NCBI GenBank assembly: GCA_000091205.1
Contig: AP006492.2
DNA from: Cyanidioschyzon merolae
Lineage: Eukaryota
Reading direction: 5' to 3' (one strand)
Length of the DNA: 64,000 nucleotides
How positions within the stretch are numbered: position 1 is the first letter of the stretch; each line of letters begins with the position of its first letter. Position numbers and translations under genes: made by a program. Shown here in pieces: positions 5,129-37,496 of this stretch. The notes beneath the pieces were generated by a model. The model worked only from the letters and a program-made list of their open reading frames with translations. It had not been told where the DNA came from and ran no database searches.

Positions 5129-5153
5129 TTTCTCAGCAAGACTGGCAAAAGAA

Positions 5154-5225
5154 AGGAGGCAGTCGGATTTGAACCAACGACCTATCGGACTGCAGCCGAT
5201 TGCTCTACCACTGAGCTATACCTCC
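5154..5225 (-). tRNA. tRNA-Cys (anticodon GCA)
   Basis: Reverse complement reads GGAGGTATAGCTCAGTGGTAGAGCAATCGGCTGCAGTCCGATAGGTCGTTGGTTCAAATCCGACTGCCTCC plus discriminator U. Cloverleaf with 7-bp acceptor stem, D-arm GCTC/GAGC, anticodon loop CU-GCA-GU, T-arm GTTGG/CCGAC with TTCAAAT loop. A T-rich run follows the 3' end on the coding strand. Confidence 0.85.
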
Positions 5226-5645
5226 TGAGCGGCTTGCGTGAAAATGAGCACAAATTTCTATATAAATACGTGTTCGACGTTGATCGCATCCGCGGCGCAG
5301 CCGCGAATCCCCGCTGGCGCACGCGATCCGCTGCAGGTGCTCGGCGCGTGGCGGCGCGCTGCGCCATCCCTTTGACAAAGCGAAGAAGCGACCTTGGACC
5401 CGAGCGTGCGATAATGATCAAGTTTCATGGGGGAACGCAAAGCGGTACGGTGCGCGCTTGCAACTGCCGTGGCGGTTTCGCTTGGAAAGTGAGCTCTGAG
5501 TCATAGGTGCTCCTCATGTTGTTTCCCTGCGCATGGCGTCGAGCATGAAGAAGCGTGGATAGATTTTTTAGTTTGATTTATGCGCGCAGCGAGACCTGGA
5601 CGCATAAAGATGCGCCCTCCTTCCTGAATGCAATGCAGGGCCGAA

Positions 5646-9226: not shown

Positions 9227-9706
9227 GCAGAGACTCTACACGGCGTACGGTATGCTCAGGTTAGGAACAAAGCAAGCACCGCGGAGACGGAGGTATGCTT
9301 GTGTGACGTGATTCGTCAATGGGTGCGCTTAAGTGACGAGTATCGGGAAAGCGACAAGTTCTGCAAGGAAACGCAACCCTACAAAAGAACTGTACGCCCT
9401 GCCTGCAAGTTTCGTTCTTCTTTAGGGACTCCCTGACGTTTCTTCCACGAATTGCTGTGCTAGTTCGTCGAACTCTGTCTCCGGCAGCGCTCTTAGAGTG
9501 TTTGCGGGAACGCAGCTGTCTGCGATAGTGCTGGACAAACGCGCAGGTGCCAGTAGAGCCAGTGTCCACCGAAAGCTCCGTGTGTCCTCGTATAGGAATT
9601 CTAGGACTGGCCAATTGATTCTGATAGTGGTTGTCTGGTTCATGAAGAACGACCGAATAAAAGCAAGCGGATCAGTTGCTGACATTTCGTGAAAAATGTC
9701 CTCAGT

Positions 9707-11506
9707 TATATCGATTAATGAAACGAGATTATTGTTCAGCAACTGCGTGGGAATACCATGCCTCGCGTGTCTATCCACACCGCTTCGTCCGCTCTAGATT
9801 GCCGAACGTGCCATACCAGTGACCGGCCTCGGGCAGCAATCCAATGCCTTGTCTCTGGGTCACTGGTTCTGCTCATCGAGAGTGCTCAGCGCCTCAGGGC
9901 AGTGCTCAAACCCAGTCCCAGACGAACTGATCGAATGTTCGCTCGACCCACAGCCGCTGGACGCCCCGGGAGCACGGAACATTGCCGGATGCTGATCGAC
10001 AGGTTCATGTCTCGGTACAGAAAAGTGCTTGCGCGCCTGGTTGCTGGTGCAGTTCCAAGGTGGCAAGCCTCTCGCCTTCGATTGCCTCGCCATCTGGCGT
10101 TCGGCCAGCATACCGCACACGGTATCGTGCATCCGACGCTGGTCCCGGCTCGTGTGCTCTACCGGTTTCAGCATGCATATGTTCTAGTCAGGCGCGTACG
10201 TCGTCATGAGGGCGTCAGTGAACGACCTTCGAAATCGATGCCTGCACTCACTTGAAGCGCTCTTCGACGGGGCACTGGAGCAACCGATGTTTGCTGGAGG
10301 ATGTTCATCGCGGTGGGCTACCACTCAACGACGCGACTTGCCGGTCGTTCCCTTTCCACAACCGCTGGACTAGGTGCCGAGTGCAAGACTACCGGCCTCC
10401 GCACAGACGAAACTGCAGGCTATCCGAGCACAGCGCCAGACACATCTGCCGTCGATTGTCTGTACAGGTCAGTCGCACGCTCGTGTGCTCTCTGAATGAC
10501 GCGCATAAACGCATCACCGTCTGCACAGTACAATACGACGCTGAGAGCGTCGCGATGCGCCCTGATGCCGTCATTCCACTTTGTGGTATGTCGCCTGGCG
10601 TCCATGATGCCCGGGCCCCGATGATGCCGCGCTCTGGAAGAATCCTGTCGCGGTGCCGATGGTGTCCCGAGCAGCCGCTGTGCTGCCGCACGAAGGTTTG
10701 ATCGAGAACGTCGAGGCGGGTAAGGACAGCTGGCTGCCGTGCGTACGGAACGCGCTCGAACAGCCGCTCGACGAGATGCGCTCCAGCGAGAGAGACGAGG
10801 GAAGCGCGAGCAAGTCGGCACACACGAAGCTTGAGGCCATCAGCGAATCTTTTCGTTTGGCCGTTGGTAGGCGACTGAACGGCTGCGTCACCACAAGCAC
10901 CGGTACTGCCGCCATTCAAGCTTGTCTCTTGTGTATGAAGTGCAGCTCGCGTCTCTCTGAATGCCGATACAAAGCTGTACCGGTTATTCCGAGAACAGTC
11001 TCATCCAGTGAGACGAAACCCCGTCCCTGCTGGAACCAGTGTTTGTGTTTCATGGGGAAGCTTAGCGAGCGAAGCTTAACGGGCGAGAGCTGCATACGGA
11101 AACATACTTCTTAGTACGAGTTCGTGTCTCTTCATCAATGCTCGTCTCAATAGAGCGGAAACTTCATATCCTGTCGCTTCTTTGACAAAACTGGTCAGCA
11201 AAAGTATGCTATAGAATGCGTTGTCGAGTGAGTGCGCAGCCGTATAGACAGCGTTTGCGAGGATCAGGGTAGGGTGCACGGCATCCGTTGCACGGACGAC
11301 GAGGACAGAGGATTCATCCGCCTACTGAGCGTAGAGTGACCGACTTGGACCAGTAATGTCGTTATCTCGCCAGCTAGCAGCGACAGCACAGAGTCTTTCC
11401 AGGACCGCTTCTCAAACCGAATAACACGTCCCGTTTGCTGAGTACCTGAAAGTAAAATAGTCTCAGATAATGTACTTGAACGTGTGTTCCGGAATTCTCT
11501 GATCTG
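9707..11506. repeat. Inverted repeat, left arm (1800 bp)
   Basis: Reverse-complement match to 16137-17936 with exact mirror symmetry. ORF pairs 9758-10255 / 17388-17885 and 11076-11279 / 16364-16567 are near-identical; every coordinate pair sums to 27643. About 97-98% identity is implied by a few amino-acid differences per ORF. Confidence 0.9.
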
Positions 11507-11740: not shown

Positions 11741-12313
11741 ATGGGTGCGAACGCGTCCACTTTGCTGGACGACGATATAACAGAAATAGTGGCCTCGTCG
11801 TCTTTCTCGAAAGATGAAATCGAGCAACTGTATAGCCGCTTTCAAAAGCTAGACCGCAACGGATCCGGAACGATCGATGCTTCAGAGTTCCTGATGATTC
11901 CGGAGCTCGCCATGAACCCACTTGTGCCGCGTATTGTCCAGCTTTTTGACGGTGTTAACTTCAAAGAGTTTGTGCGGCTGCTCTCGGCGTTCGGAAAAAA
12001 CGCACCTCGGGAAGCACGGATTGACTTCTTGTTCCGCTTTTACGACGTTGATGGGGATGGGGTGGTCAGCGAAGCAGACGTCAACAGTATTTTTCGGTTG
12101 CTCGTTGGCGAAAACCTGGACGACGCCACCTTGCGACGAATCGTACGCCAGGCTATGCTGGACTTTGGCGCTGGCCTAGAAGCTCTGGATGGCGGAGACG
12201 AGAGCGAAGAGCTGAACGGCTGTAGCGTTCAGTGCCGACCGCTCACGAGAGAGGACTTCTGTCGAAAGCTTCAAAACGTCGAACTCGATCGCATTTTACA
12301 AATATCCGTTTAG
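11741..12313 (+). CDS. Calcineurin B-like EF-hand Ca2+-binding protein (N-myristoylation motif MGxxxS)
   Basis: MGANASTLL... start. EF-hand loops DRNGSGTIDASEF and DVDGDGVVSEADV. PELAMNPLVPRIVQLFD matches the calcineurin B PELQQNPLVQRVIDIFD block. ATG at 11741 confirmed in sequence. Confidence 0.75.
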   Translation: MGANASTLLDDDITEIVASSSFSKDEIEQLYSRFQKLDRNGSGTIDASEFLMIPELAMNPLVPRIVQLFDGVNFKEFVRLLSAFGKNAPREARIDFLFRFYDVDGDGVVSEADVNSIFRLLVGENLDDATLRRIVRQAMLDFGAGLEALDGGDESEELNGCSVQCRPLTREDFCRKLQNVELDRILQISV

Positions 12314-12668
12314 GACTTCATTCCGGTGACCGCATTCGCTATGCTTCGTCAATCGAGCAGGGCATGCACCCCCAGGAGCCGCCTACGTGGCTACGCCTCC
12401 CCGCTCATGCTCTCTTTTTCAAGGCGATATCATTGGTGACCAGGCGAGCTGGTGCGTGCCCAGTGGTGCGTATCCACGAATACAACGCGCGCTCTCTACA
12501 ACAGCGTCTAGCGGCAGCCTCGGTTGTGGTGCTTTCGGAGTCGGCGTGCGGCGTGCACGAGGCACTGTCACCCTTCAACAAGCTCAGTTTAGAGGAGCCT
12601 CACAGGTCTCTTGCGGGACCAAAGTTCAGAGCCGCAGTCTCGCGCACTGGAGGTCGCCTTCTCTCTCT

Positions 12669-12697
12669 GTGTGTGTATGTATGTGTGTGTGTGAGCG
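12669..12697. repeat. (GT)n/(GTAT)n microsatellite
   Basis: gtgtgtgtatgtatgtgtgtgtgtg. Shorter in paralogous copy at about 46269-46290. Confidence 0.8.
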
Positions 12698-13144
12698 ACG
12701 CACAGCGGCCTCGCGAAAGGACGCGAGACCCCGCTCTGCGTACATTTACCACAACGATGCGCCTTCCTCGACGAACGTACATAACATAGGGGCATGCTAG
12801 AGTCTCCAGCAGAGTCGTCCTCGCTTTACATTCCAAGGATGTGTACTGCCGTTACATCCATACGTGCGCAGCCGGTGATACCACAGCACGTCATCGTGCA
12901 CAGGCAGGCACACGAGCCGCTCTGTCTCGGGTCCGCAGCTGAGGCACTGTCGCCTCAGAGGTCCAACAGACGCGGATACCGTTCCGCAGCCGCAGAGCAG
13001 GTCGAGCGCCCCAGAGGCAGCGCAGCGGCAACTGCTCCGAGATGGAGCGCTCCTGATGATGCCCGCTACAGATCGACTGTTCAATAAATGAATGAATGGA
13101 ATGCCACCTGGTCGAAGATGTTGCCGAACGGTTCACTAATCCTG

Positions 13145-14821
13145 TCACGACGCTACGACAACTGGTACGGCCTCCGATGTGCAAGCGGTGTCAGTGCCTG
13201 CCCCAGTGCCTGCTCCAGTGCTTGCGTCCGCAACACGCCAACGCGCACGAATAACACTGTCCGCTGGGTATATCGTCGGCAAGTAGATGATCTCGTCGCT
13301 GTGCACGGTGCGCACCCGAGTCCAGTCCACAGTGGTCGCCAGCACCGCCAAATAGCACATCAAATGGTTGATCGCATAGTTCCGCCCGACACACATGTGC
13401 GGACCGCAGCCAAACGTCAGGAAATGCTTCCGGTACTTTTGCTCCTCCTGCCGCGGCGGCAGCATCCGCTCCGGATCGAAGCGTTCAGGTGACGGAAAGC
13501 CCTGCATGCACGCAGTCCAGAGACTCGGCACCACGAGCGCACCTCGCGGCACCTCGTAGCCGTTCGGCAGCTGCACCCGCTTGCTCGCAACCTGCGGAAC
13601 CATCACAGGCGGCGGCCGGAAGCGCAGCACCTCCAGAACGACCGCGCGCGTGTACACCATCTGCTCCAGCAGCTCGTAGGTGATCGGCTCGTCGTGCGGG
13701 CGCAGCCGCTGTTGCTCTTCGCGCACCCGCTGCAGCACGTCGGGTCGCTCGGCCACCAGCACAGTCGTCCATACCAGCGACGCTGTCGACGCATCCTGAG
13801 ACGCAAACAAAAAGTCCAGCATGGCGTCCGCCATCTCGTGGTCCGCGCTGTACTTGGGCGGCGCCCGGTTCTCGCGCTTCGCAGCTGCAACCTCCTCCAG
13901 CACGGACACCGTCCAAAAGTCCAGCAGGCACTGCGGCTCCGCCTCGGCGTCCTTCCGGAAACGCTCCTTCGACGCCCGTACACACGCAGTCAGGTCCCGT
14001 AGTACACGCTCCCGCGCCCGTATCGCACGCCACAGGCCCGTCCCAGGCAGCGCTAACGGGAACGAAAGAAAACCCTGCGTGATCAGCAGATAGTCCGCAC
14101 AGAAGCGCTCCCGATCGCGCAGGTACGGACCCACAAACACCGTCTGCGACGTCCGCAGATTCAGGTCGCGGATGCGCGGGCGCACCTCAAATGCTGCCGC
14201 GGTGCCGTCCGTGCCGCGCCCCGACAGCCACGCCGCCAGGTGCTCGCCAATCAGGCGCTCGTGGATGCTCACGTACATGCCTAGCGCCTTGGGCGTGAAC
14301 AGCCGCAGAAAAGACTGCCGCAGGAGCTTGTGCTCCTCGCCGCTCTTGAAGGCAATATTGTTCCGCCCGAGGATCCGCCAGCCGTTCGGGTGCAGTATCA
14401 TCTCAAACGCGTGCGGGCCGTTCTCGCTGAGCACGTACCGGCTGAGGTCCGTGTCCGTCACGAAAAGCACGAAGAAGCCCGCCAGCGCATTCCAGCTCAG
14501 GCCGCACGGGTTTAAGCGCCGCTGCCGCTCCCAGAACCCGTACGGCGACAGCACCATTTCCACGATGCTCCCGATGAGCGGAATCACAAACCGCGGGCCT
14601 GGGATTCGCCCGTAGCCCGCCCAGCGCCGCAGTCGCACCTGCTCTGCGATCGCGAGGCCGAGCACCAGCAGCGCAACGTACGCCAGCGCACGGCTGGCGG
14701 TACCCCAGCCGGCGATCCCCAGCGCAGCGTCCGCGCGGCGCAGGCAGTGCCGCGCCACCGATACCACCCACTCGGCTGCTGCCACAGGCGTCGAGCGCGT
14801 AAGCGAGGCCGTCTCAATCAT
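13145..14821 (-). CDS. Cytochrome P450 monooxygenase (membrane-anchored)
   Basis: 558-aa ORF. Heme-binding signature FGCGPHMCVGRNYA, PERF motif (PERFDPER), and an N-terminal hydrophobic anchor ALAYVALLVLGLAIA. ATG confirmed at 14819-14821 on the minus strand. Confidence 0.85.
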   Translation of the reverse strand: MIETASLTRSTPVAAAEWVVSVARHCLRRADAALGIAGWGTASRALAYVALLVLGLAIAEQVRLRRWAGYGRIPGPRFVIPLIGSIVEMVLSPYGFWERQRRLNPCGLSWNALAGFFVLFVTDTDLSRYVLSENGPHAFEMILHPNGWRILGRNNIAFKSGEEHKLLRQSFLRLFTPKALGMYVSIHERLIGEHLAAWLSGRGTDGTAAAFEVRPRIRDLNLRTSQTVFVGPYLRDRERFCADYLLITQGFLSFPLALPGTGLWRAIRARERVLRDLTACVRASKERFRKDAEAEPQCLLDFWTVSVLEEVAAAKRENRAPPKYSADHEMADAMLDFLFASQDASTASLVWTTVLVAERPDVLQRVREEQQRLRPHDEPITYELLEQMVYTRAVVLEVLRFRPPPVMVPQVASKRVQLPNGYEVPRGALVVPSLWTACMQGFPSPERFDPERMLPPRQEEQKYRKHFLTFGCGPHMCVGRNYAINHLMCYLAVLATTVDWTRVRTVHSDEIIYLPTIYPADSVIRARWRVADASTGAGTGAGTDTACTSEAVPVVVAS

Positions 14822-15546
14822 TGCTGTCGCAGCTGCGCTCGATGCTCAAGCACGCGCACGCGCCAGCGAGTACGGCCGCGATCGCGAACGCGAACGCGTG
14901 TGTCTACGACTAGGAGGCGCGCGCCCGTGTGCTTCAGCAGCGTACGCGCCTTTGGACAGCAGCAAACGCTGACCGGTCCCGCTCAAGCGCTGCGCGTTTC
15001 GCCAAAACGTATACACAAACGGCACGCACTTGGTTCACGAGCAAAGCGCTCTGCTCGGTGCCGCTCCAAAATAGTCTCCAGCAACCTCTCGGGGGCGTCT
15101 GCGCCCCAGCACGGCACGCGCAGCTCAGCAACGCCTCGCTCGACGGGGTCTCGCTCAGCCTACCGAGTTCAAGCACGGCTTAGACTAGCCTTGCCCTTGC
15201 TGTGATTCAGTCCTTGCTTTCCCTCGCCGCACTAGACTCAGACTCGTGCGGCACAGCTGCGCACCGTCACGCCGGGTCAAGCGCGCTCGATCGTGTCAGA
15301 GCCCGAGGCAAGCGTTCACACGTGTACACACACACAGACACAAACACACTGATGCAGACAATAAAAACAGTGATATCGACAGGACCAAACCAGAGATGCA
15401 CACACACACTTCGACCCTGTTTGGAATACACACAAGACGGGTGTTCCCCGAAATACTGCTACACTTGATTGTGTTGAAACGCGCCTTCACCGAATAATGA
15501 AATGCGCGGCATCGAGCAGCACGCATCGACGACGCGACAGCCGCAA

Positions 15547-15547
<1 letters not shown>

Positions 15548-15622
<75 letters not shown>
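15548..15622. repeat. (GCGT)n microsatellite, about 19 units, alternating purine-pyrimidine (Z-DNA prone)
   Basis: Tandem gcgt units seen directly. Paralogous tract at 49137-49181 has about 11 units. Confidence 0.9.
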
Positions 15623-15623
<1 letters not shown>

Positions 15624-15739
15624 ATCCATAGACCGCTCGCCTTCAGACGTAGGGCAGCGAGGCACCCGGTCGATGCGGATGCGTCACGCGGGGCAATGCG
15701 CGCCACCACGCATCGATTGCGCTGCCGCTGAGGCCTGTT

Positions 15740-15892
15740 GATGATGATGATGATGGTGATGATGGTGATGCTTGGGAGCGAGGCGGGGAGTCGCTGTGCT
15801 GCGTCGCCGACGCTGCTGGCTACACGATCGCGGGAGGGGGGGGGGTTTGTGTTGATGCTTCTCTCTCTCTCTCTGTGTGTGTGTATGCATCT
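15740..15892. repeat. Compound simple-repeat cluster: (TGATGR)n, G10 run, (CT)n(GT)n
   Basis: tgatgatgatgatgatggtgatgatggtgatg; gggaggggggggggtttg; ctctctctctctctgtgtgtgtgt. Lies upstream of the minus-strand P450. Confidence 0.85.
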
Positions 15893-16136
15893 AACATCGT
15901 GCAGCGTCCCGTAATGGCACCAGATGGTGCAGTCGACGGGGTACGCTGATTTCCCGCAGGCGATGCCCGACATTACGTAGTAGGAAGAATGCCCCACAGG
16001 ATATGCAACGCTTTGTTATTTTCGAACTCGACTGTGTATGACCTCGAGCGAATTGCAAGTACCCTCAATTGATGGAGATGTGGAAGGGAAAAATCATGCG
16101 GAAGGCTCGATTTGCGCATGATGCTCACGTTTTACT

Positions 16137-17936
16137 CAGATCAGAGAATTCCGGAACACACGTTCAAGTACATTATCTGAGACTATTTTACTTTCAGGTA
16201 CTCAGCAAACGGGACGTGTTATTCGGTTTGAGAAGCGGTCCTGGAAAGACTCTGTGCTGTCGCTGCTAGCTGGCGAGATAACGACATTACTGGTCCAAGT
16301 CGGTCACTCTACGCTCAGTAGGCGGATGAATCCTCTGTCCTCGTCGTCCGTGCAACGGATGCCGTGCACCCTACCCTGATCCTCGCAAACGCTGTCTATA
16401 CGGCTGCGCACTCACTCGACAACGCATTCTATAGCATACTTTTGCTGACCAGTTTTGTCAAAGAAGCGACAGGATATGAAGTTTCCGCTCTATTGAGACG
16501 AGCATTGATGAAGAGACACGAACTCGTACTAAGAAGTATGTTTCCGTATGCAGCTCTCGCCCGTTAAGCTTCGCTCGCTAAGCTTCCCCATGAAACACAA
16601 ACACCGGTTCCAGCAGGGACGGGGTTTCGTCTCACTGGATGAGACTGTTCTCGGAATAACCGGTACAGCTTTGTATCGGCATTCAGAGAGACGCGAGCTG
16701 CACTTCATACACAAGAGACAAGCTTGAATGGCGGCAGTACCGGTGCTTGTGGTGACGCAGCCGTTCAGTCGCCTACCAACGGCCAAACGAAAAGATTCGC
16801 TGATGGCCTCAAGCTTCGTGTGTGCCGACTTGCTCGCGCTTCCCTCGTCTCCCTCGCTGGGGCGCATCTCGTCGAGCGGCTGTTCGAGCGCGTTCCGTAC
16901 GCACGGCGGCCAGCTGTCCTTACCCGCCTCGACGTTCTCGATCAAACCTTCGTGCGGCAGCACAACGGCTGCTCGGGACACCATCGGCACCGCGACAGGA
17001 TTCTTCCAGAGCGCGGCATCATCGGGGCCCGGGCATCATGGACGCCAGGCGACATACCACAAAGTGGAATGACGGCATCAGGGCGCATCGCGACGCTCTC
17101 AGCGTCGTATTGTACTGTGCAGACGGTGATGCGTTTATGCGCGTTATTCAGAGAGCACACGAGCGTGCGACTGGCCTGTACAGACGATCGACGGCAGATG
17201 TGTCTGGCGCTGTGCTCGGATAGCCTGCAGTTTCGTCTGTGCGGAGGCCGGTAGTCTTGCACTCGGCACCTAGTCAAGCGGTTGTGGAAAGGGAATGACC
17301 GGCAAGTCGCGTCGTTGAGTGGTAGCCCACCGCGATGAACATCCTCCAGCAAACATCGGTTGCTCCAGTGCCCCGTCGAAGCGCGCCTCAAGTGAGTGCA
17401 GGCATCGATTTCGAAGGTCGTTCACTGACGCCCTCATGACGACGTACGCGCCTGACTAGAACATATGCATGCTGAAACCGGTAGAGCACACGAGCCGGGA
17501 CCAGCGTCGGATGCACGATACCGTGTGCGGTATGCTGGCCGAACGCCAGATGGCGAGGCAATCGAAGGCGAGAGGCTTGCCACCTTGGAACTGCACCAGC
17601 AACCAGGCGCGCAAGCACTTTTCTGTACCGAGACATGAACCTGTCGATCAGCATCCGGCAATGTTCCGTGCTCCCGGGGCGTCCAGCGGCTGTGGGTCGA
17701 GCGAACGTTCGATCAGTTCGTCTGGGACTGGGTTTGAGCACTGCCCTGAGGCGCTGAGCACTCTCGATGAGCAGAACCAGTGACCCAGAGACAAGGCATT
17801 GGATTGCTGCCCGAGGCCGGTCACTGGTATGGCACGTTCGGCAATCTAGAGCGGACGAAGCGGCGTGGATAGATACGCGCGGCATGGTATTCCCACGCAG
17901 TTGCTGAACAATAATCTCGTTTCATTAATCGATATA
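16137..17936. repeat. Inverted repeat, right arm (1800 bp)
   Basis: Mirror of 9707-11506. See left arm. Confidence 0.9.
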
Positions 17937-19586
17937 TCTACGGATATCGCGTAAAGTGTACAGCAAGTATTCTTGTTAATACCCGTGTCAGACTAACACC
18001 GAACGGGTCTACCTAATGAAACGCGCCTGCAAAGTTTCGAGACGCTTTCAACATCCATCAGCACCAGCTTCCGCGGGCTTTGTCTGCGACTGCTTCCTTT
18101 TCCTCTGTATTATTTCCAGCTTTTAGTATGTCAGACTCTCGCGTACCTGCAGCATTGCTGTCAGAAGTCGATGGATGATGATGATCGCGTACAAGTCCCG
18201 AGTTCCTAGTTTCCGTTAGTTGCCAACGGATTCGAGACTCATACGGAAGTTGCGATCTACGCTTCGCTTGCCATTTTCACCTTCTTTTCATAGAGTCATA
18301 CTGCTCCCTGCATAGTGATGAGACTTGCCTTGGACAGGTGTTCCCCCAAGTCCATCAGATCTCCTTGACTGAGGGCTATACTCTAGCGCACGAAAGCTTG
18401 CTTCGCCATTCGATACACGCCCTCTGGCGCGGCAGCGCGAACCCTCGATGCCACCCTCCGTCTGTGCACCCCGTCGTCGTAACCTAGAATCACAGGGGTT
18501 TCCTGGGTGATCCCATTAGCGAGTATGCTCTCTGCCACCCGTGCACGAGCACGCTCCCTCATTCGATGAAGGATTCGGGAAATGCGGTATTGTCCATGAT
18601 GAAACAAGAAGTACCGTTTGGAAAAATCTGGTCTCTACAAGGAGCAACGGAACTTCGATCCGTCTATGCTGCCATCTCGCAAAACAGTGACCCTCTCTCT
18701 AGTGAGTGTGTTTGTTGGAATGACTGAAGCTGGAGTTCAAGGCCCTTTTACGTGCAAGCAGATGAAAAGGGAGCCTCTTGGAGCAGATCCCGTGAGATCT
18801 ATAATGCTGCTCTCGGATGCTGCTGCGTCGATGAGCGCAACGAAAGGAGTGTATGTCCTGCGAACAGAGCCAATTATTCGATGTGAAATGTTCAGTAAAT
18901 TTTTGGTATGGGCTTGTGAAAAGGTCGTCAATAAACGAAGCGCAGCGGTTTTTGTGGTCACTTGGGCGGCATGAATCGCCGTGCCAACCGTTTGCCTTGA
19001 AACCAAAACGTTGAAAACTTGACGCATGCGTGATTCGAGCGCGCCGCACGTAGAGTAAAGAGAAGCATGGGGGCTTGTGCATGTGACTCAGATAATGAAA
19101 TCGATTATTTTAAGAACACTTGTTCCGGAGCATGGCAAATCATGGTCATTCCGGTGACGTAACAACTTCCAGCGGCGAGGCGTTGAGGAAGTCACCCCGA
19201 AAAGACGACCATTCATCGATGAATTAGGCGTAAAACGTATGCAGGTATTGCTGCACTCGGAATCTCGCGGCTTTATATCCTAAAAAATCTCGGGGAAATT
19301 TGAATATCGGGAACAGAGATACCAGGTGAGAGCTCCATGTAGGTCTCGTTAAGCTTTTGGGCAAGAATAACCAGGGTCCCGAGCGGCGCCTCCTTATCTG
19401 TCCGCGGGATCCTGCATATCAGCGATACCGCAAGTTCGAGCATTTAACTGCTCCACATTGTTTCTGGACGCAAGATCCCGTTGCGAGCCCACGACATGCG
19501 ACAACGACGGCAACAACGGCAATCAGCATTACCGCGACGAAGATCGGCACTGCCCTCGTCAGGAGTGATGGCACCTAGCTGCAAGT

Positions 19587-21761
19587 TCAAGCACGGAGGT
19601 CTGGTCGCTCTCGGCCAAGCTCCGAGACGATTCCACAATAGAGAAGAGCTGCGCGCCCAATATCTGCCACAAAACTCGAGGCAAGTTCCCCAACAGCTTG
19701 AACGTCTCCGTCATTGGGGGCAACGTACTTTTCTAGGTAAACGCGCAGGGTCGCATCCGCTGAACTTGTCCCGCTGAGCCGCAGAACGGCTCGCATCCTC
19801 CGATCAGATGAGAAAAACAACCGTACGCCCTGGTTTCGCGCCCAGGAGCCATCCACTGGATCCTGGTAATGAAATACATCCGCGGCATAGAGCTGTGGTC
19901 CATCGATACGCAAGCTGAGGATTTCGCCGCCTTCGACCGAGCGTTCTAGGTTGCGCATCCAGCGCTCGGCTGTGGTCCGTTCGATTCCGTGAAAATCCCA
20001 GCGCTCGTAATAGTTGCGTCCGTAGTGAGCCCAGTGTGCTCGAACAATATCCTCAACACTTGTGCTTTTCGATCCCGGAGCGACTTGGAGATTATGGTAC
20101 GCCAAAATTGACAGCCAAAAAAGAATAGCCCACAAACCATCTTTCTCTCTGATATGAGCCCCGCCCGCCCCGCAACTCTCCTCTCCGCATAGAGAGACCA
20201 GGCCCGCGTCGAGCAGATTGCAGAAATATTTCCACCCCGTGGGCGTTTCGTAGCACCTAATATTATGGCGTGAAGCAACGACGTCAACAGCAGAGCTCGT
20301 CGGCATCGAGCGAGCGACGCCTCGAATAAGGCCACCATCAAATCTGCAGTATGCGGCAAAATCCGGTCGAAGTGCGTAATCCAACATAATCGCCAGCGAG
20401 TCTGATGGTTGCACGACGAACTTACGCCCGAGAATAAGATATCGGTCACCATCGGCATCGGAAGCAGCGCCAAAGTCGGGTGAATCCTCATCGGAAAAGA
20501 ATTCGGCAACCAAGTCTGCCAAGTTCTCCAGATTAGGTTCCGGATGAACGCCACCAAAGTCGGGGAGATACTGACCCCGCCGGAACCAGGGATACTCCCA
20601 GTACCCGAGTTTTTCGCCAAAAATCATGAACGCAAACGGACCAGTCGATCCATACATCGCATCGTAAACCATGTTAAAGTTTGGGAGACGCAAGAGCGCT
20701 CTTAATCGTTCAAAATGAAATATACCTTCCATCAGCTCCACGTACGTTGCAGTGGCATCAACGAGGTGGATTTCAAAAGTCCTCCCGCCATCCGAGTGTG
20801 GGAGTCTGTCCGGATTCGGGGACTGGAGCGCATCGCGAGCGCCCTCCGGCAAGATCCGAAAACGGTGTACCGTTTGGATCCGTTTGAAATTGACACCGTC
20901 GAACCCGTCCCGGCCACAGAGCGCCTCCGGATCCGACGCCTCCACCTCTAAATATCTAGATATTGTCAAGGTTCTCTCGTAAATTAGGGACGTAAATGAG
21001 TCCGGCGCTGGACCACCGTTTTCCATATTGTACTTGACACCCCAGTCGCCATCAACACCGCCAGGGTTGTGGCTCGCCGTCAGGGCGATCCCGCCCAGGG
21101 CACCAGCAGCTCGAATCGCCGCACTGATAGCGGGCGTCGTAGCGATAGCGTCCGGTCCGAGCACGATCAGCCGCTGCAGGCTGTTGGCGGCAGCGATGCG
21201 GAGCAGTGTTCGAAGGGCAGCCTGGTTGCCCTCGCGGCCGTCGCCACCGACAACGAGTGTTGCCCGGTTGAGGCACGTGCGCCCGTATCGCTCGACCAGC
21301 ACATCGAAAAGGGATTGAAACCAGTTCTCGAAAAAGTTTGGTGTCTGTGTTACCTCACGTGTGCGCTTTCGTATGCCAGAGGTGCCCGTCTTCTGACCAG
21401 GTATCGGTGACGTTGGAACCTGGACAACGCACAGCGGTGTGCTTTCCTCGTACACGACGGTTTCTTGGTGGAACAGATCACTCCAGTCGATTGCAGAGCA
21501 TCGGATTTTGCTGCGTTCGAGTCTAGAGGTTTGATTCGGTTCCCGTTTGCCTGCAAACTTGCGGCGACGCCACGCGCTCTGGCACAAGTAAGAACTTGCC
21601 CTGGTTGGGTTCCAGTAGGTCCCGCGCGCCAGCGTTGCTCGTTTCGGCGTGTAGTTCACGGTAAACGCCAGGCACGGAAACCAGCCGCACTCACAACGAG
21701 GCGCCAATCTGCCGTAAGTTACGCAGTCCATCCCAGTGGATGCATCCTCGATTGAAACCAT
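19587..21761 (-). CDS. Phosphoglucomutase (alpha-D-phosphohexomutase superfamily) with N-terminal extension
   Basis: 724-aa ORF. Active-site loop TASHNPGG, GQKTGTSGIRK phosphoserine region, and characteristic PGM blocks (FGAASDADGDR, GEESCG). About 125 extra N-terminal residues rich in R/S/T/C. Confidence 0.85.
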   Translation of the reverse strand: MVSIEDASTGMDCVTYGRLAPRCECGWFPCLAFTVNYTPKRATLARGTYWNPTRASSYLCQSAWRRRKFAGKREPNQTSRLERSKIRCSAIDWSDLFHQETVVYEESTPLCVVQVPTSPIPGQKTGTSGIRKRTREVTQTPNFFENWFQSLFDVLVERYGRTCLNRATLVVGGDGREGNQAALRTLLRIAAANSLQRLIVLGPDAIATTPAISAAIRAAGALGGIALTASHNPGGVDGDWGVKYNMENGGPAPDSFTSLIYERTLTISRYLEVEASDPEALCGRDGFDGVNFKRIQTVHRFRILPEGARDALQSPNPDRLPHSDGGRTFEIHLVDATATYVELMEGIFHFERLRALLRLPNFNMVYDAMYGSTGPFAFMIFGEKLGYWEYPWFRRGQYLPDFGGVHPEPNLENLADLVAEFFSDEDSPDFGAASDADGDRYLILGRKFVVQPSDSLAIMLDYALRPDFAAYCRFDGGLIRGVARSMPTSSAVDVVASRHNIRCYETPTGWKYFCNLLDAGLVSLCGEESCGAGGAHIREKDGLWAILFWLSILAYHNLQVAPGSKSTSVEDIVRAHWAHYGRNYYERWDFHGIERTTAERWMRNLERSVEGGEILSLRIDGPQLYAADVFHYQDPVDGSWARNQGVRLFFSSDRRMRAVLRLSGTSSADATLRVYLEKYVAPNDGDVQAVGELASSFVADIGRAALLYCGIVSELGRERPDLRA

Positions 21762-21855
21762 GCACTCCCTGGGACGTGCACCCGTGCGGCTCGCCCGCAG
21801 CTGCTGCTACAGAGTGCAGCGAATGAACGCGTAGTCTACAAATCCCAGTACGCGT

Positions 21856-22908
21856 TTACGACTTGTCGATCCGAACGCCGTTCGAAATTCGAACGACGCC
21901 AGCAGTACAGTAGTGGCGAGAAGCCCGACCTAGACTAGTCGTCATTAACCAATGTGCAGACGTCCTCGTCTTTTTCGACCGGCCCCCGCTACTGCTCCCT
22001 TTTTTCTCATATAGTTCCACTTTGAGAGATTGTCCAGCAAAGTTCGCGCTTGTCCAATCTGGTGGTCTCTCCTCCAGCACCGCACATCTCCTTATATTGA
22101 TGGCGGCGTTAGAGTCACGATTCACAAACTCCATCCGTTTCTTGCCATCACTGGTTGCACTTACTAATGCAAAGAGTCCACGAACTTTCGCCCTCCTTTC
22201 CATTTGCTCTTCTGTTAGCAGTCCGTACTTTGCTATATCCTCAGGGCTCCTCTGGCACTTTTCCATCTCGACTCTCTGAAGTGTACAACCCAGCTCGTGG
22301 TGTGTGTAGGACGTTCGGAACTCATCTACAGGTATCGTGACGAAACGCCTTGTGCACTCCTTGTACAACCTTGTCGTTGGAGCTGGTGTACACCCTTTTT
22401 GAATCTTCCATCGCCCTGCTGCGTACGCTACTACGAGCCTTTGAGTCTTGTCCTCTTTGAGGGCACTCAACTGATTGAAAAAGTTGGCGAACGCCTGCTG
22501 CTTACCACAATACAGATTCATTCGCAAACGAGCCCATCGGGGCTTTGTATACTCCTCCCAGAGTGCATCCCAATGGGCAACGCGAACTTCCATAAATTTC
22601 CGAAAAGCTTCAAAGTCCGCACCTCGGCTCGTCATCTCGCCCAAAGCTTCCAGGTGATCCTTCATTCCTGAATTCCAAGTCTCGATTTTCTTCCTCGCAT
22701 TCATTATACCGGATTCTCGATAGTATCTTGCTCTCGAGAACCTCATCAGACGCATGTCTTTCTGACGTAAGTTACCATCAGCGCCATCTTCTGCACGCTT
22801 CGGTGCTGCGATGGTTGTGATATTCGTATTCCCAGGGTCCGCGCCACCGACAAAGTCGTTATCTTGCACTTTCTCGGTCACAGGACCCGCCCTCCTTCTT
22901 TTCTTCAT
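21856..22908 (-). CDS. Fanzor/TnpB-like RuvC endonuclease, C-terminal catalytic half (RuvC-I, RuvC-II, Zn-ribbon remnant, RuvC-III)
   Basis: RuvC-I: [27 protein letters not shown] (GxDxG...DG). Bridge block: [29 protein letters not shown], where TnpB has LeYKa..G..v..Vdp.yTSq.C. RuvC-III: [14 protein letters not shown], where TnpB has DaDvNAAiNI. Zn-ribbon reduced to H/C remnants. Canonical RuvC-II Glu position reads VVAYAAG. Confidence 0.55.
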
Positions 22909-23075
22909 GCTTCACCGCGTCAATGGCAAGGTAGTCATCCTGCACCACCGGCGTCGCAGGATCCGCCTCCTTCTCATCTTCATCCTTCGCCGCGCCGACG
23001 ATAAGGTCGTTATCCTCCACCTCCTGCATCACAGAATCCTCCTCTTTGTTTTCTGCATCCCTCGTGACGGGCGCG
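22850..23075. repeat. In-frame 66-bp (22-codon) tandem repeat inside Fanzor-like ORF, about 3 units
   Basis: Units encode ..[24 protein letters not shown] / [25 protein letters not shown] / [21 protein letters not shown]. The last unit runs into the RuvC-I motif. Copy 2 has 4-5 units (33545-33835). Confidence 0.75.
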
Positions 23076-24584
23076 GCCGAGGGCGGATCTGGACGATCTT
23101 TCTTCAACCGCCGATAGAGTACACACGTGGCTACTCCATCGGTTTCGATCAACCCAGCAAATACCTTTTGTTTGCTGACTTTGAGACGTTTGAAGTCGAA
23201 GATACTCTTCCAGTACGTCTCCCGGTTTTCACCGATGAAGTCCTCCCTGCTCACATCGAACTCCGGACAGATCTCCCTCATGATGCCGTAAAGGACGCCT
23301 GAATCGATAGTCACGAAATGTGACTTGATATTGCACATTGGAACGCCGTTGAAGCGCTTACCCATTAGGAAAGCCTTCCGTCTCTCCCACTCTTGATTTG
23401 TCTCTTCACTCAGCTTCATCTCCGCTTCGCGTTCGAGCTCTCGGTCCAGAAACACGAAATATCACAGGATGAGGCGGTAGTATCTTTCCTTATCTTTTTT
23501 CAACTCTGATCAATTTTCTGCCAAATTCGCCAGCCCCAGGACTGCACGATACTCTTGGATAGCCGCACGGATTACAGAAGCTTCATTTGCGCTCCTGCGT
23601 GACGCCTTCTTATCGACAAACTCGATCTCAACTTCATACTTGCGATCTTTCATGATGCCATTGATAATCGCCCATTTTCCGTTGCGAGCGATGCCCGGGT
23701 AGAGTGTACCCACCGCGCGTATCATAAAACGTTCGAGGTTCACTGTCAAATGGTTCTTCAGACTCGTGGTGTACTTTTTCGCTCCGTATGCCTAAATATC
23801 CGAGGCACCCCTGTATCGATTACCTTCGAAGCGGAATTCCACCAAGTTTTCGTGGAGGGCGTGCACTAGCACATTTTCCTTCAGCGCTTCCGCTGTGCCA
23901 AGCATCAGGTGACGAATAAACGTCTTGTCGAAAAACTCGTCAGGAATCTCGACTGTTTCCGTGTGCGTCACGTCGCGATACATCTCCCTCACCAAATGCA
24001 TCAGTACTGACGACGCCTTGACAATACTCTTGGAGTACGAGTCGACATGGTTTCTGATAGCGTCTCGCAACTTTTCGTTGCACGGATCCTTGATATGTTT
24101 AAGAAGGAAGGTTTTCACCACCATCTCGTCGTAAAGTCGTCTTTGTTGCAGCCTTCAACGTAGGGCCTCCCCTTTCGGTTCTTCTTCTCTCCCTTTTCTT
24201 CTGGACTCGGCACTGTTTTTTGTTTTTTTTTCTGGCAGCCGGCGACCCTGGGCCTCCAGGATCGTGGACTTGCTTTTTCATAGCTTTCCTTTTTTAGTTT
24301 TTTTTTGAAAAACAACGCTCTGTGAACGCTTCTGTTATATACTGCGAAAAAAAACTTGAACACACTTGTTTGAGGTTTGAAAGAAAAATGAACTAAAAAA
24401 CTGTACTCTGCTAAGACCTTAACGGAAATCCAATTTTTCCAGTAGAACAACACGCTACTGATCAGGATCGCGTTTCCCTTCAACGGCGGCATTCGCATCG
24501 TGTCAGTAGACTGGCCGATCTCCGAGGTATCTCGGCGTCGATCTGGTCGTGGTGAGCAAAACGCCGGGTACAAAAACACCGATA

Positions 24585-27500
24585 ACAAAACAAACTAGTC
24601 GCAAACTATTTATTAAAGAACAACTATCTTAAAGACCCACACACCACGCCCGCCTTAGAGGTCTAGTTTTTCCGGAGAAGCTCTGAAAGTGGGTTAACGC
24701 GGGGTGCTTGGGCGACGGCGAAGGAAGCCCACGCCAGGGACCTTGACCGCAACGAACGGAGGGGCGGCGGCAGTAGCACCAGAAAATGTTGACGAAAATC
24801 CTGATTAGTCATCCGCCCCTCCCGAATCAACGCTGCAGGTTCGGGCGCAAATCTTGGATCGATCCTCGGACTCGGGCTCCGTTTTACCTCCTACCTTGGC
24901 TACCTACCTCAACTTTGGGAACAATTTCGGCGGATACTTTGGAAGACGGCTGGCAGTATGTTCACTGTCGAAGCTGGAATAAGCGGCTTGCCCGCCTATG
25001 TGTTTGGGGAGCGGATACGTAGCCGCTGAAAGGGTGGTTTGCAGACTGTTCCCAATTGTTGAGGGGAGGTTAAAGCGTCGGGCAAGATAAAGGTCGCATT
25101 CGAATCGACCTTGACTAGCGTACATCTGATTCTACGCTAGCGCTGCGGCAGACGCTCAATGAACGACTGGAATGCAGGAGGCGCTGGTGGCATGTGCGAT
25201 CACACACGCCATGGAGGGTGCATCTCAATCGACAACGTATCTCTCGAGTACCGCAGCGTTAATCCTATTCCCTTATGCGCTACGACTCGATAGGTTTCGC
25301 ATCATGGAATATTTGTGGGATCGCCTCGGTATTGAACTACGAGATATCGAATTACCAGTACAGTAATGAAGAACTGATACAAGTCGAGGACTGTACAAAA
25401 GGCAAAAGAGACCCAACCAGACACGGAGAAGGAGACACAGAAACCTCATGATCCACCTAGATGCAAAATAACCAGAGAATGTAGCTCAGGAAAGAACCCG
25501 ATGAAGAAGAAAACCAACAAGAGAAAAACAGAAGAATAGGAAGAAGAACTCCCGAACGAGTCCACAGGCGGGGGCTCCAGCGAACCCATCACAAGTCGTC
25601 CCCGAAAGAGCACCCCAGCAGGAACTCAAGAAAGCCGTCGCCAAACCGAGTCACCTACTCACAGCGCTGAAGATCCGAAAAGCCGTGCATACAAATCTTT
25701 AGACCAATTGGCACGCGAGTTTGTAGATGGGAATCAGAAGTTGCCGGAGAGCTGGGACTGCTTGCACCAGAACGCAACAGTTGCAAACCTCAGTGCCTGA
25801 AACGACGTACCAATACCCGGATTGACGAGCGCCACCGACTCTATCAGATCGTCAACCACACCGCCATACGCGCCAACGCTGGAGACAAGGAAGCGAAGGC
25901 AGTCCTAACGGCGCTACAGGCACAACATGAAGAAGCTATCAAAAGAAAGAAGAAACTTTCCAGAGAAGACAAACGAGAGGATCGAAACCGCAAAATCGCC
26001 TCCCTAGCGAAATCTATGCTAGAGAGCACCAACGAAGATGAGACCTGGCGCTACATTCGATCGAGACTGGACCCACCAAAAAAGTGCTTGGGGCTCACAC
26101 CAATCGTTTATGAGGAAGTGCTGAGGACGGAGCGTGCCTCAGTGAATGAGGCCTGGACGGACCACGGCACAGAGCTGCATGAAGACGCAACTGGGAACTG
26201 CCAAGACAGAATCTATTGGCACCAGTATGCCGCAGAACTACCGCGCCTCGAACCGGTACCGGAATGGAACGACCCAATCTTCTGGCCTGAATCTGTTCGG
26301 ACCGTGCTATGCTCAAGCAACCGCAAAACACCTGGCATCGACGGTATCGCGGCGGAGTGGATGAAACTGGTGATCCCAAAAGACGGGACAAGAGGGACAC
26401 TATCGATACCAGATGAACCTGACACAAGCTTAGGCAAACGCCTTGTGGAGCTCATCCAACGCATGTTCGAAGAGGCGTACATCCCGGATTTATGGAGGAC
26501 TGCCGAGGTCGTACCGATCCTCAAAAAGGACTCCGACGTACACAAACACAGACATGAACAACTACCGGACTATTCGCCTCATCCCGTCAATCATGAAGCT
26601 ACTTTGCGCCATTCCCACGAACCGGACTCAGAGAGGCCTCGTGGAACGCAAGTTCTTCGCCCCAGAACAGGCTGGATTCCGGAGCCACGAGGAGTGCATG
26701 AGCCATGCCCTGACCCTAACTGAAGTGGTGCAACGTCGCTCCATTAGCGGCCAACAACCAGCTTACGTATGCTTCACCGACTTTCAAAAGGCCTTTGACA
26801 CGGTCCCGCACGAGGCTCCATTTCTCAAGATGGAACGAGCCCAAGTCTCCGGAAAGTGCTTAGCGTTCTTCCGTGCGCTCTATGCAGACTCATGGATGCG
26901 CATCCGACTGGGCGACCGCTCAAGAACCCCTTCCAGAAGAATCCGCCGTGGACTGCGGCAGGGCGAGCGCGCATCCCCGCTCCTTTTCAACATCTTCATC
27001 AACGATCTGCTGAACAACTGCAGACAATACGGGCTTGAGGTGCCGTGGATAGACTGTGGAGATACCCGATGAGGAGCTCTCACATAGGAACCGCCTCGCA
27101 GGCCGTCTAGTTGCGGACGATGTCGTGCTGTTGGCACCCGCCCCGGAAACGCTTGCGGGTAGCATGGAACAAGTCAGCGCCCGGGCCGATCGCTGGGAGA
27201 TGAGCATAGGAGCATCGAAGTGCGGCGTCATGGTCATCCATGGAGACTCGCAGAGCATTCGCAATCGCTCGTGGCGGTTGCAGAATCAGGAAATTCCGAT
27301 CGTGGAAAAATATCGCTACCCGGGGGTCTGTCTAACGCCGACGCTCGACGAAGAGGCACACGTCGACGAGATGATCGCCAAGATGCATAGACGTACAGCG
27401 ATCGCACGTCCATTCCCATCCGACCCCTCTATCTGCATAGCAATTCGTACCAGGGCACGAAGGATGTGTATCATCCAGCCTGCGACCTGGGGTGCTGAGT

Positions 27501-28878
27501 GGTGCGGCATGAACCACACAAATGCCTCACGTCTGCAGATAGCCGCCAACATGGCAATGCGACTCGTTGTTGCTGTTGGATGCTCAATGTAGAGCAGAGC
27601 AACCACCGCGCTGGCACTCGGACTTGAACTCCAAATAGCCTCGACAGAGGCGACAGCAGCAGGTTGCCGGGCACGCATATGGGGCAAAGGGCCAACTATG
27701 AACACCTGGTTCGATCGGATATCCATGCAGACCCCAACGCACCGCAAGAACACTTGGATGAAATCGACGCAGATTTGGCTGAAGCGCCTCTTAGGGGACA
27801 ACACGCTCCCCAATCGTTCCCCAGGAATGTAGAAGACTTCAGACGCCTCAAGCGAACGGTCCAAACAACAATTTGGGAACGTAGACACGGAACCAGTCGC
27901 GCCAGTAACGCCGGCTTAACTCTATACCGGAACTACAACCTAGCATACACATGCAAGTACTGGTGGGAGGCGCTGGAATTCCCGGGACTTGCTCGAGGTA
28001 CCCAGTGGCTCGCCAAAATCCGCGTTGATGGCTTCTGGCTAGCGGCACCGGCTCTAAACCATATAGGGACACTGGAATCGCACTGGGAGTCACACTGTCC
28101 CTGCTATCGAGACGAAATCCCCGAGACGCTGACATATTTAGGCTTACAGTGCCCGCGCTGGAAGCAGGAGCGCAGCGAGCTCCTTGAAGGACAGCAGCAG
28201 CTGGGCATCACCATGATAGCCGAGGGCCGGACATTCACTTTGAGTGCAGCACTGGCAACTGATGGTCCGCTAACAGATCCTCAGTGCTCATTAGTGGCCA
28301 ACAAACTCACATGCTACGTTCTAGGCATGAGGTCCAGCGTATCGGATGCGCACACGGGCCCAGTGCGCTTTCTGCGCCCACCTTTTGTGGTGGGTGTCAA
28401 GCACAAATCCGCATTTCCAACCGACGACAACGCATTCCATGCATGATCACGAAGGAGAGAGGCGGCTCCCACGATATATCCTAACAGTCAAGTTTCTCCA
28501 GCGTGTCGTGCAGCGAAGGCAAGCCTGCATCCGCAGACTGTCCGAGCACAAACTGACGACGAGACTCGATTCTACGTCGGGTGAAGCACACCTCGAGCCG
28601 ACGCCCTTTGTGGTATAGAAAAGCCGTTCTGTCTCCATGATGCATCTGTACCAAAGGTAAAGACGCTATTGCGGATAATTAGGACAGGTTCTGGGCACAC
28701 GATAGGACGTATGAGATGACCAGAATATCTGAGACGAAGTATAGGTAATGGAACTTGGGAGTAGCCTGTTTGATGGATACTTCACGGCGCACTGAAAAAA
28801 AGAGAAAAAAGTAAGAAAAGAAAAATGCGCGTGATCGGAGAACGCTGGCCTAAGTAAACGTTTTGTCAACGAAAAAAC
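24585..28878 (+). mobile_element. Non-LTR (LINE-like) retrotransposon, copy A, degenerate (frameshifted)
   Basis: RT motifs across three frame segments (26016-26723, 26443-27072, 27056-27592): NYRTIRLIPSIMKLL, FRSHEECMSHAL, QGERASPLLFNIFINDL, LVADDVVLLA (FADD-box variant), CGVMVIHG. C-terminal Cys/His domain HCPCYRDEIPETLTYLGLQCPRW at 27664-28446. A-rich 3' tail region. No apurinic-endonuclease domain recognisable. Confidence 0.8.
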
Positions 28879-28926
28879 AAATACCGCCCCAGCAGCGCCT
28901 GGGCGGACAAGCGGCCGCGATCCGGC

Positions 28927-29144
28927 GCAATCGCCGGAAAGCTCTGCGCCGCTGCAATCGCCGGAAAGCTCTGCGCCGCTGCAATCGCCGGAAAGCTCTG
29001 CGCCGCTGCAATCGCCGGAACGCTCTGCGCCGCTGCAATCGCCGGAACGCTCTGCGCCGCTGCAATCGCCGGAAAGCTCTGCGCCGCTGCAATCGCCGGA
29101 AAGCTCTGCGCCGCTGCAATCGCCGGAAAGCTCTGCGCCGCTGC
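28927..29144. repeat. 27-bp minisatellite, about 8 units (gcaatcgccggaaagctctgcgccgct)
   Basis: Seen directly. Immediately 3' of LINE copy A. Absent at the equivalent junction of copy C. One frame reads RRAFRRLQR repeatedly. Confidence 0.9.
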
Positions 29145-29221
29145 AGGCGCGCCGGCCAGAGCGCTCTCCATAGATCCGTAACTCTTATTTTGCGTGTGCA
29201 GAGGCTAGAGCGGTACGCTGG

Positions 29222-29818
29222 ATGGAACTGTTTCGAAAAATGAAAGCTTGCAACGGCCTACTCGGTTTTTGTTCTTGGTATACGGATATCGGCAAACTGG
29301 ACTCGACTTTGCGGCAACGACGAGAACGTTTGCGTTGTCGAGTGCGGCGTGCGGTGGTAGCTGGAGCAGCGGCTTCTTCGCTCGACGGGTCGCGCACGCA
29401 TGCACGCGGGACACCAGGACACCGACTGGTGCGAGGGCAGATGCCCGCGCCTAAAATTGGGCGGCCGAAAACCGAAGTGAAGCGAGAGACCTTCCGTATG
29501 CCAGAACCGGTAAAGGAGGTCGAGGCAGAAGCGGGCGCTGTTCGAGGGCGCCCGAAAACGAAGCGTGTGACGGACACGGAGTTCGTGCCGATGTGGAAAG
29601 TGATTCTACTAGGCGACAAAGAATATGAGGAAAAGCACGTCATAGAATCGCTAGTGAAGACCATCCCAAAAATGGACAAGGAGGAGGCGCGACGAATTTT
29701 CAAAGAGGCCCAAGCTGTTGGGGAATCTGTGGTTACCGTTGTCGCTCAGGAGCACGCCGAGTTCTACGCGACGATGCTGCGGCGATGCTCGCTTTACGTG
29801 CGAATCGAACCGGAGTGA
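29222..29818 (+). CDS. ClpS-like Clp protease adaptor domain protein with N-terminal basic/AT-hook-like region (start uncertain)
   Basis: C-terminal WKVILLGDKEYEEKHVIESLVKTIPKMDKEEARRIFKEAQAVGESVVTVVAQEHAEFYATMLRR fits the ClpS fold consensus (yKVvLlNDD...A..im.evH..G.avv....E.AE). Upstream GRPK motifs: KIGRPKTE, RGRPKTKR. Confidence 0.55.
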   Translation: MELFRKMKACNGLLGFCSWYTDIGKLDSTLRQRRERLRCRVRRAVVAGAAASSLDGSRTHARGTPGHRLVRGQMPAPKIGRPKTEVKRETFRMPEPVKEVEAEAGAVRGRPKTKRVTDTEFVPMWKVILLGDKEYEEKHVIESLVKTIPKMDKEEARRIFKEAQAVGESVVTVVAQEHAEFYATMLRRCSLYVRIEPE

Positions 29819-32504: not shown

Positions 32505-32575
32505 AGCGTCCCATACCTCCGATGCTCGGGTGCTTCAAGTGCACGCACACCGCCACCGCCACCGCCTTTTACACT

Positions 32576-37226: not shown

Positions 37227-37496
37227 TTTTTATTCTCCTCGCGCCCGTTGCATCACTAGCCACATTATTCGCGGCGTTTCTCCGTCCTATTCGAGTAGTT
37301 ATTGTTACTTTGTGCACATTGTTTAAAGCGCGTTCGTTTATTGAAAAACTCAAAACAGTATTCAATCGTGTGTACCTCGACTTGAAAATGACCTGCCGTG
37401 CCAGCCGCTGCATGCACGCGCTGTTAATCGTTCAATTCTTGCACATAAAAGCGAATTTGTTGACGGGGTGTAGGTTCATTGTGCTTGGGGTGAACG

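Follow-up and report, generated by a model that had tools for sequence, protein, structure and literature searches.

The stretch of DNA analysed here (the window) comprises 64,000 nt of chromosome 10 of Cyanidioschyzon merolae 10D (GCA_000091205.1, contig AP006492.2) and carries two nearly identical copies of a gene encoding a cytochrome P450 (P450) of family CYP710. The question that this pair raises is whether the copies resemble each other through youth or have been kept alike since an older duplication. Comparison with the sister genus Cyanidiococcus, with the outgroup Cyanidium, and with environmental contigs of C. merolae type favors the second answer with high confidence: the pair very probably represents an old dispersed duplication that has been homogenised by interlocus gene conversion, a case of concerted evolution.

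Two Copies of One Unit

A blastn comparison of the window with itself and a repeat search identify a direct repeat pair in which copy A (positions 12312–15984) corresponds to copy B (45916–49540), 33 kb apart on the one chromosome. Each unit contains a single long minus-strand open reading frame (ORF), the P450 gene, whose ATG is preceded by 1,163 nt and whose stop codon is followed by 833 nt of unit sequence. No noncoding RNA was found within the unit by Rfam and tRNA scans, and no additional conserved ORF was found when sister genomes were compared. The duplication proposed by an earlier, sequence-only reading of this stretch is thereby confirmed as a genuine dispersed duplication of the entire P450 gene with the spacers on either side.

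A base-by-base list of differences between the copies holds 17 substitutions, eight 1-nt indels (the base being absent from copy B in every case), one 2-nt indel, one 6-nt indel within a (TG)n run, and one 32-nt indel within a (TGCG)n run. This list gives an identity of ~99.5% by substitutions alone and ~98.2% with all gap columns counted (differences of 0.5% and 1.8%, respectively), and the ~97% estimated in the sequence-only reading is too low. Two of the length differences described there are real: the microsatellite upstream of the gene is (TGCG)19 in copy A (15547–15622) and (TGCG)11 in copy B (49138–49181), and the (TG)n run has 13 units in A and 10 in B. The TGATGR run, also said to vary in length, is 32 nt in both copies, which are one substitution apart there.

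The left edge of the unit falls, as had been noted, at the TAG of a calcineurin-B-like gene; this stop codon occupies 12311–12313, homology begins with its AG at 12312, and copy B has CAG at this position. That copy B lacks calcineurin B and has unrelated sequence upstream was likewise borne out, and local alignment revealed no residual similarity outside either unit edge above that of shuffled-sequence controls.

Both loci are present in independent environmental sequence. Fourteen metagenome contigs, from several JGI and ENA metagenomes and assemblers and 99% identical to the window, reproduce at least one of the four junctions between unit and flank. The calcineurin-B gene and copy A are spanned by L008–L011, L013, and L014, and contigs L022 and L023 connect the upstream part of copy A with the right arm of an inverted repeat and the phosphoglucomutase (PGM) gene. 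A Myb-domain gene and copy B are spanned by L001, L005–L007, and L012; the left junction of copy B is also contained in L015. Contig L005 runs on through the ribosomal protein S10 gene (RPS10), a poly(A)-binding protein gene (PABP), and a photolyase-like gene, and it is the only contig to span the right junction of copy B, L006 stopping exactly at 49540. The unit edges lie at identical bases in every C. merolae-type contig.

One of these contigs, L015 (ENA ERZ27249350 k141_157132; positions 1–736 versus the rest), runs from the Myb-side flank through the locus B unit into sequence that lies to the right of copy A (15985–16320). An unequal crossover or a 33-kb tandem duplication would produce such a junction, but it may equally be an assembly chimera.

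The Duplication Probably Predates the Split of Two Genera

Cyanidiococcus yangmingshanensis has two genes, ~18 kb apart, for a single 524-aa protein, and in a second, independent Cyanidiococcus assembly one CYP710 protein likewise comes from two loci. The positions of these loci are those of C. merolae: one lies beside calcineurin B, the other between Myb and RPS10, and they lie eight genes apart in both genera. The two landmarks of locus B, the Myb-domain gene on the left (43120–44730, minus strand) and RPS10 on the right (51123–51665, minus strand), keep their positions in Cyanidiococcus, where the P450 gene at this locus shares its strand with both, and PABP and the photolyase-like gene follow in the order seen in the window. 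In Cyanidiococcus the repeat measures 5,286 nt, with 99.92% identity between the copies, and is inverted. In the outgroup, Cyanidium caldarium, a single CYP710 copy stands tail-to-tail with calcineurin B, and locus A, beside calcineurin B, is therefore the parental locus and locus B, in the Myb–RPS10 interval, the daughter.

The sequence-only reading had suggested synteny as a means of dating the duplication, a check that takes the likeness of the copies as a sign of their age. Synteny does place both loci before the Cyanidioschyzon/Cyanidiococcus split, but near-identity is no measure of age here: with the loci older than a split at which synonymous divergence (dS) has reached ~1, the near-identity of the copies reflects homogenisation rather than youth.

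The orientation of the copies differs between the genera, and the outgroup arrangement points to an ancestor in which the copies were direct, and indicates that the calcineurin-B/P450 pair was later inverted in Cyanidiococcus, and that a block from PGM to a small conserved ORF (38923–39510) was inverted in C. merolae. The latter block (19587–39510), which contains PGM, ClpS, a 369-aa ORF, a DUF1995 gene, and a 195-aa ORF, is inverted relative to both Cyanidiococcus (L002/L003) and Cyanidium (L004); no inverted repeat is found at its breakpoints.

In a third lineage (P0137; JGI and Logan contigs L016–L019), CYP710 shares 85% identity with the Cyanidiococcus protein and 80% with that of C. merolae. 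Three independent P0137 contigs, which are too short to include flanks, start within ~100 nt and end within ~70 nt of one another, as they would at the edges of a repeat.

Signatures of Probable Interlocus Gene Conversion

In a comparison of 471 shared codons, the C. merolae pair has a dS of 0.008 and the Cyanidiococcus pair a dS of 0, against ~1.0 between the genera, whereas copies that had diverged freely since before the split would differ by at least the between-genus value. The same contrast holds among strains. When two Cyanidiococcus strains are compared at both loci, 41 substitutions inside the 5.3-kb repeat sort by strain and none by locus, and at the one amino acid by which the strains differ, the two copies of each strain agree.

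Within C. merolae-type sequence, a set made up of the two reference copies and 12 environmental contigs across the unit contains no site with a fixed difference between loci A and B, and 15 polymorphisms occur at both loci alike. One of these, at 12385, is only 73 nt from unique flanking sequence, which makes assembly chimerism unlikely at this site. At 13454 and 14660 the 10D copies have alleles in common that set them apart from most or all of the other contigs, and an exact match to one protein, P0124, occurs at locus A and at locus B in different samples.

Base composition provides a further signature. The GC content at third codon positions (GC3) of the duplicated gene is 0.79–0.80 in C. 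merolae, compared with 0.54–0.63 for 14 neighbouring genes, and 0.72 in Cyanidiococcus, compared with 0.48–0.63 for the neighbours; in Cyanidium, where the gene is single-copy, its GC3 of 0.86 lies inside the range of its neighbours (0.74–0.88). The noncoding parts of the unit also have a GC content above that of their immediate flanks. This excess fits, without proving, a GC-biased gene conversion limited to the tract. Homologous recombination is very efficient in C. merolae and is the basis of routine gene targeting in this alga.

Weighing the Explanations

Several points weigh against concerted evolution as the explanation of this pair. Conversion is deduced here from patterns in the sequence and not from a directly observed event. 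Metagenome contigs can be chimeric over a 3.6-kb repeat, as L015 may be, which weakens the evidence from shared polymorphisms away from the junctions, and something other than conversion could have raised GC3. Coding sequence is all that can be aligned between C. merolae and Cyanidiococcus; the spacers and unit edges do not align, and neither a common insertion point nor common unit edges can therefore be demonstrated across the genera. The unit is 3.6 kb long in C. merolae and 5.3 kb in Cyanidiococcus, and in Cyanidiococcus ~410 nt separate the repeat edge from the calcineurin-B stop codon. The coincidence of edge and stop codon is thus not conserved; its exactness in C. merolae is left unexplained by a conversion model and is possibly due to chance.

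Part of this evidence could be read as two independent and recent duplications, in which each genus lately copied CYP710 into the Myb–RPS10 spacer and the likeness of the copies is simply youth. Units unlike in length (3.6 and 5.3 kb) and in their edges are what such a history would leave in the two genera, as are copies that are direct in one genus and inverted in the other, and with unalignable spacers a common insertion site is unproven. Recent copying would, however, have had to use one donor and one target spacer twice over, and to place the copy in the same way with respect to Myb, RPS10, and PABP each time; and a single inversion, by which the calcineurin-B/P450 pair of Cyanidiococcus departs from the outgroup, accounts for the difference in orientation. 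Neither the 41:0 distribution of substitutions by strain and locus, nor the polymorphisms shared across loci, nor the GC3 excess in both genera is accounted for by recent copying, and we regard this history as improbable. A duplication that exists in the assembly alone, one true locus having been entered twice in the reference, finds some support in the genome paper: 13 former gaps were found to be 99.4–100% identical to other regions, and an earlier assembly contained more than 20 kb of wrong sequence (Nozaki 2007). For the present pair, independent metagenome contigs cross each of the four junctions into unique sequence and both loci recur in two Cyanidiococcus assemblies, so that an assembly duplicate, which the sequence-only reading had named as the result that would undo it, was checked and excluded, its probability being close to nil. 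An old duplication homogenised by conversion thus remains much the best account of the pair.

The CYP710 Proteins

The coding sequence of copy A (13145–14821, minus strand) specifies a 558-aa protein identical to BAM80373.1 with an intact N-terminal anchor; that of copy B (46743–48413, minus strand) specifies a 556-aa protein identical to BAM80381.1, in which the catalytic part is intact and the first ~60 codons are frame-scrambled. By exact protein match, both entries carry the NCBI annotation "cytochrome P450, family 710." The closest named relatives of the C. merolae proteins are those of Cyanidiococcus (80% identity) and Cyanidium (70%), followed by proteins of plants, green algae, and trypanosomatids named CYP710A or sterol 22-desaturase (41–50%). 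By the rule of P450 nomenclature, membership in a family requires more than 40% amino-acid identity to its named members, and the window proteins lie above this value. PF00067 is recorded for their homologues, and the heme-binding motif FGCGPHMCVG (FxxGxxxCxG), EVLR (ExxR), PERF, and FASQDAS are all present in both copies. A scan with NCBIfam was uninformative, its P450 models being bacterial only. From their sequences, the window genes encode CYP710-type P450s with a predicted function as sterol C-22 desaturases.

The window proteins have the P450 fold and motifs in common with the sterol C-22 desaturases CYP710A and CYP61 (ERG5). Of the N-terminal hydrophobic anchor and the PGP hinge behind it that are expected of such P450s, copy A has LAYVALLVLGLAIAEQV, with a mean hydropathy of 2.04; unlike the known enzymes, reference copy B as deposited lacks such a segment, owing to frameshifts. 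Independent expression of the two copies, as had been suggested from the repeat cluster that each unit carries, is plausible, but two expressible copies are not two normal enzymes unless the deletions in copy B are errors.

Anomalies in Both Reference Copies

The frameshifts of copy B result from seven private 1-nt deletions (48239–48570; after B positions 48239, 48313, 48326, 48357, 48394, 48407, and 48569), all within 337 nt, six of which lie in the coding sequence within its first 60 codons. They exchange the membrane anchor for an unrelated basic peptide, after which the frame is restored. Three private substitutions of copy B are found near the cluster, which lies in the most GC-rich 200–300 nt of the unit (70–74% GC). 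These deletions are absent from all 12 environmental contigs with coverage of the unit, whichever their locus, and in the 90% cluster the 13 further proteins listed are all 558 aa long with an intact anchor.

These observations suggest that the frameshifts are probably sequencing errors, in a repeat both rich in GC and difficult to read. Were they real, copy B would encode an anchor-less and probably nonfunctional or mislocalised paralogue, whether an incipient pseudogene or a new isoform; this alternative opposes the error reading alone, is compatible with concerted evolution, and is to be weighed apart from the rivals discussed above. It can appeal to the presence of the deletions in a finished, deposited sequence and in the annotated BAM80381.1, to a total of six deletions that allows the reading frame to recover, and to private nonconservative changes in copy A, including Q187H, such as redundancy might allow. 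Yet every one of the seven private indels is a deletion, and all are crowded within 337 nt where the unit is richest in GC; the private changes of copy B are confined to 14278–15267 (copy-A coordinates), the region is intact in all 12 environmental contigs and the 13 other cluster proteins, and frequent conversion should erase such lesions. The genome paper also describes GC-rich gaps, as well as a gap on chromosome 10 for which special sequencing chemistry was needed (Nozaki 2007). Real frameshifts accordingly seem unlikely.

Copy A has a cluster of its own, with four private substitutions within 67 nt (14195–14261) that give Q187H, R192G, and T208A. Residue Q187 is near-invariant across 25 CYP710 proteins, and copy B and all environmental copies at both loci have the consensus residues at these private sites. 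The substitutions are suspect, as are the copy B deletions, and in BAM80373.1 Q187H and R192G may be errors.

Flanking Genes and Other Repeats

The gene convergent with copy A (11741–12313, plus strand) encodes a 190-aa calcineurin-B-like EF-hand protein that starts with MGANAS, and its stop codon (12311–12313) forms the left unit edge. It has EF-hand Pfam matches and an N-terminal MGxxxS motif, and among solved structures it matches calcineurin B (E = 1e-27 to 1e-35) better than CHP/p22 (1e-22) and calmodulin (1e-10).

An inverted repeat, E/E′, brackets exactly this gene and P450 copy A. Its 1.8-kb left arm (9696–11506, plus strand) and its right arm (16137–17947, minus strand) differ at 20 positions and are 98.9% identical, and the calcineurin-B/P450 pair between them is the very segment whose orientation is opposite in C. 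merolae and Cyanidiococcus. No further copy of E occurs in the window, and metagenome contigs show only this locus; the repeat has no conserved ORF and no counterpart in Cyanidiococcus or Cyanidium. A transposon-borne origin of the P450 duplicate was rejected, since E/E′ flanks copy A alone and lies outside the unit, and the flanks of copy B are unrelated. A retroposed copy was also rejected, since the unit extends 1,163 nt and 833 nt beyond the coding sequence and has no A-run at either edge.

A repeat of ~3.3 kb is present in three copies in the window, with strong AT skew and ORFs of 235–338 aa that have no Pfam match. Its pairs are 24585–27896 versus 33912–37223 (inverted, 97.8%), 26851–28878 versus 61966–64000 (inverted, 93%), and 33912–34957 versus 62954–64000 (direct, 96%). 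It is possibly the 3.2-kb interspersed element described with 253 copies per genome (Nozaki 2007). An older direct repeat of ~82% identity (21889–23146 versus 32575–33911) overlaps a 350-aa ORF (21856–22908) that has no Cyanidiococcus match, and a 75-nt tandem structure is found at 33530–33911. A 27-nt tandem array (28868–29191) of ~12 copies with 62–100% identity lies just upstream of a ClpS-domain ORF (29222–29818), and a tRNA-Cys (GCA) gene (5153–5226, minus strand) lies between thioesterase-like and emp24 genes.

Discussion

The data show the duplication, its conserved positions, the divergence values, and the patterns across sites; conversion as the mechanism, its GC bias, and the reading of the frameshifts as errors are inferred. 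The history that best fits these data would begin with a single copying event. As synteny suggests, a 3.6-kb segment comprising the entire gene and its flanking spacers would have been copied once, from the ancestral locus at which CYP710 stands tail-to-tail with calcineurin B into the Myb–RPS10 spacer, before Cyanidioschyzon and Cyanidiococcus diverged. The patterns of sequence difference suggest that the copies then overwrote each other repeatedly by non-crossover homologous recombination, that is, by interlocus gene conversion, which would yield ~99–100% identity within a genome and orthologues diverged to saturation at silent sites. The sharp edges of the unit are explained because conversion cannot pass the ends of the shared segment. 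Conversion also appears to be GC-biased and would have raised the GC3 of CYP710 far beyond the values of the genes around it. Crossing over between direct copies would remove ~30 kb with seven genes; such a loss is probably lethal in a mostly haploid cell, and only conversion products would therefore be expected to persist.

With somewhat less assurance, we favor a stronger form of this history, in which the CYP710 pair, in a eukaryotic genome that ranks among the simplest, is a long-lived "conversion island" that has been homogenised continuously since before the genera split, in both direct and inverted orientation, with a GC bias that lifts GC3 ~0.2 over background. If this is true, the pair is a natural and genetically tractable reporter of the rate, tract length, and GC bias of ectopic recombination in Cyanidiophyceae, and selection for two doses of sterol desaturase is implied.

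C. merolae is a minimal model eukaryote whose genome has been described as almost free of redundancy. A conserved internal pair evolving in concert would mean that ectopic recombination shapes even this genome and that its duplicates are not datable by sequence identity. Two reference gene models are probably erroneous, BAM80381.1 in its N-terminal frameshifts and BAM80373.1, which may be so, at Q187H and R192G. Knock-outs of CYP710 and expression assays based on single-nucleotide polymorphisms, the latter also proposed in the sequence-only reading, face two nearly indistinguishable loci that are able to repair each other.

Both gene annotations are already known, as is concerted evolution with GC-biased conversion as a process. 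No earlier description was found in the literature of the relationship between the two CYP710 genes or of gene conversion in these algae, and what is new is a clean and apparently unreported instance rather than a new kind of phenomenon.

The textbook cases of interlocus conversion are primate globin pairs, duplicated ribosomal-protein genes of yeast, and the palindrome arms of sex chromosomes. As in other dispersed duplicates that evolve in concert, the CYP710 paralogues within a genome are far closer than the orthologues despite the older duplication, and the strain-specific alleles in both copies, sharp tract limits, and GC-enriched tract associated with ectopic conversion are found here too. 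Unlike the textbook cases, this pair consists of only two copies, 18–34 kb apart, in an extremely compact and mostly haploid algal genome; homogenisation has taken place in both direct (C. merolae) and inverted (Cyanidiococcus) orientation, and the tract comprises the gene with ~2 kb of spacer. Closer to home, the subtelomeric duplicated elements of Cyanidiophyceae are likewise near-identical multi-kilobase segments that carry functional genes (Nozaki 2007; Cho 2023), and a comparative study of Cyanidiophyceae genomes reported non-subtelomeric duplications in Galdieriales only. The CYP710 pair differs from those elements in that it is internal (45–85 kb from the contig end in Cyanidiococcus), consists of two copies on one chromosome, and is not among the listed subtelomeric gene types.

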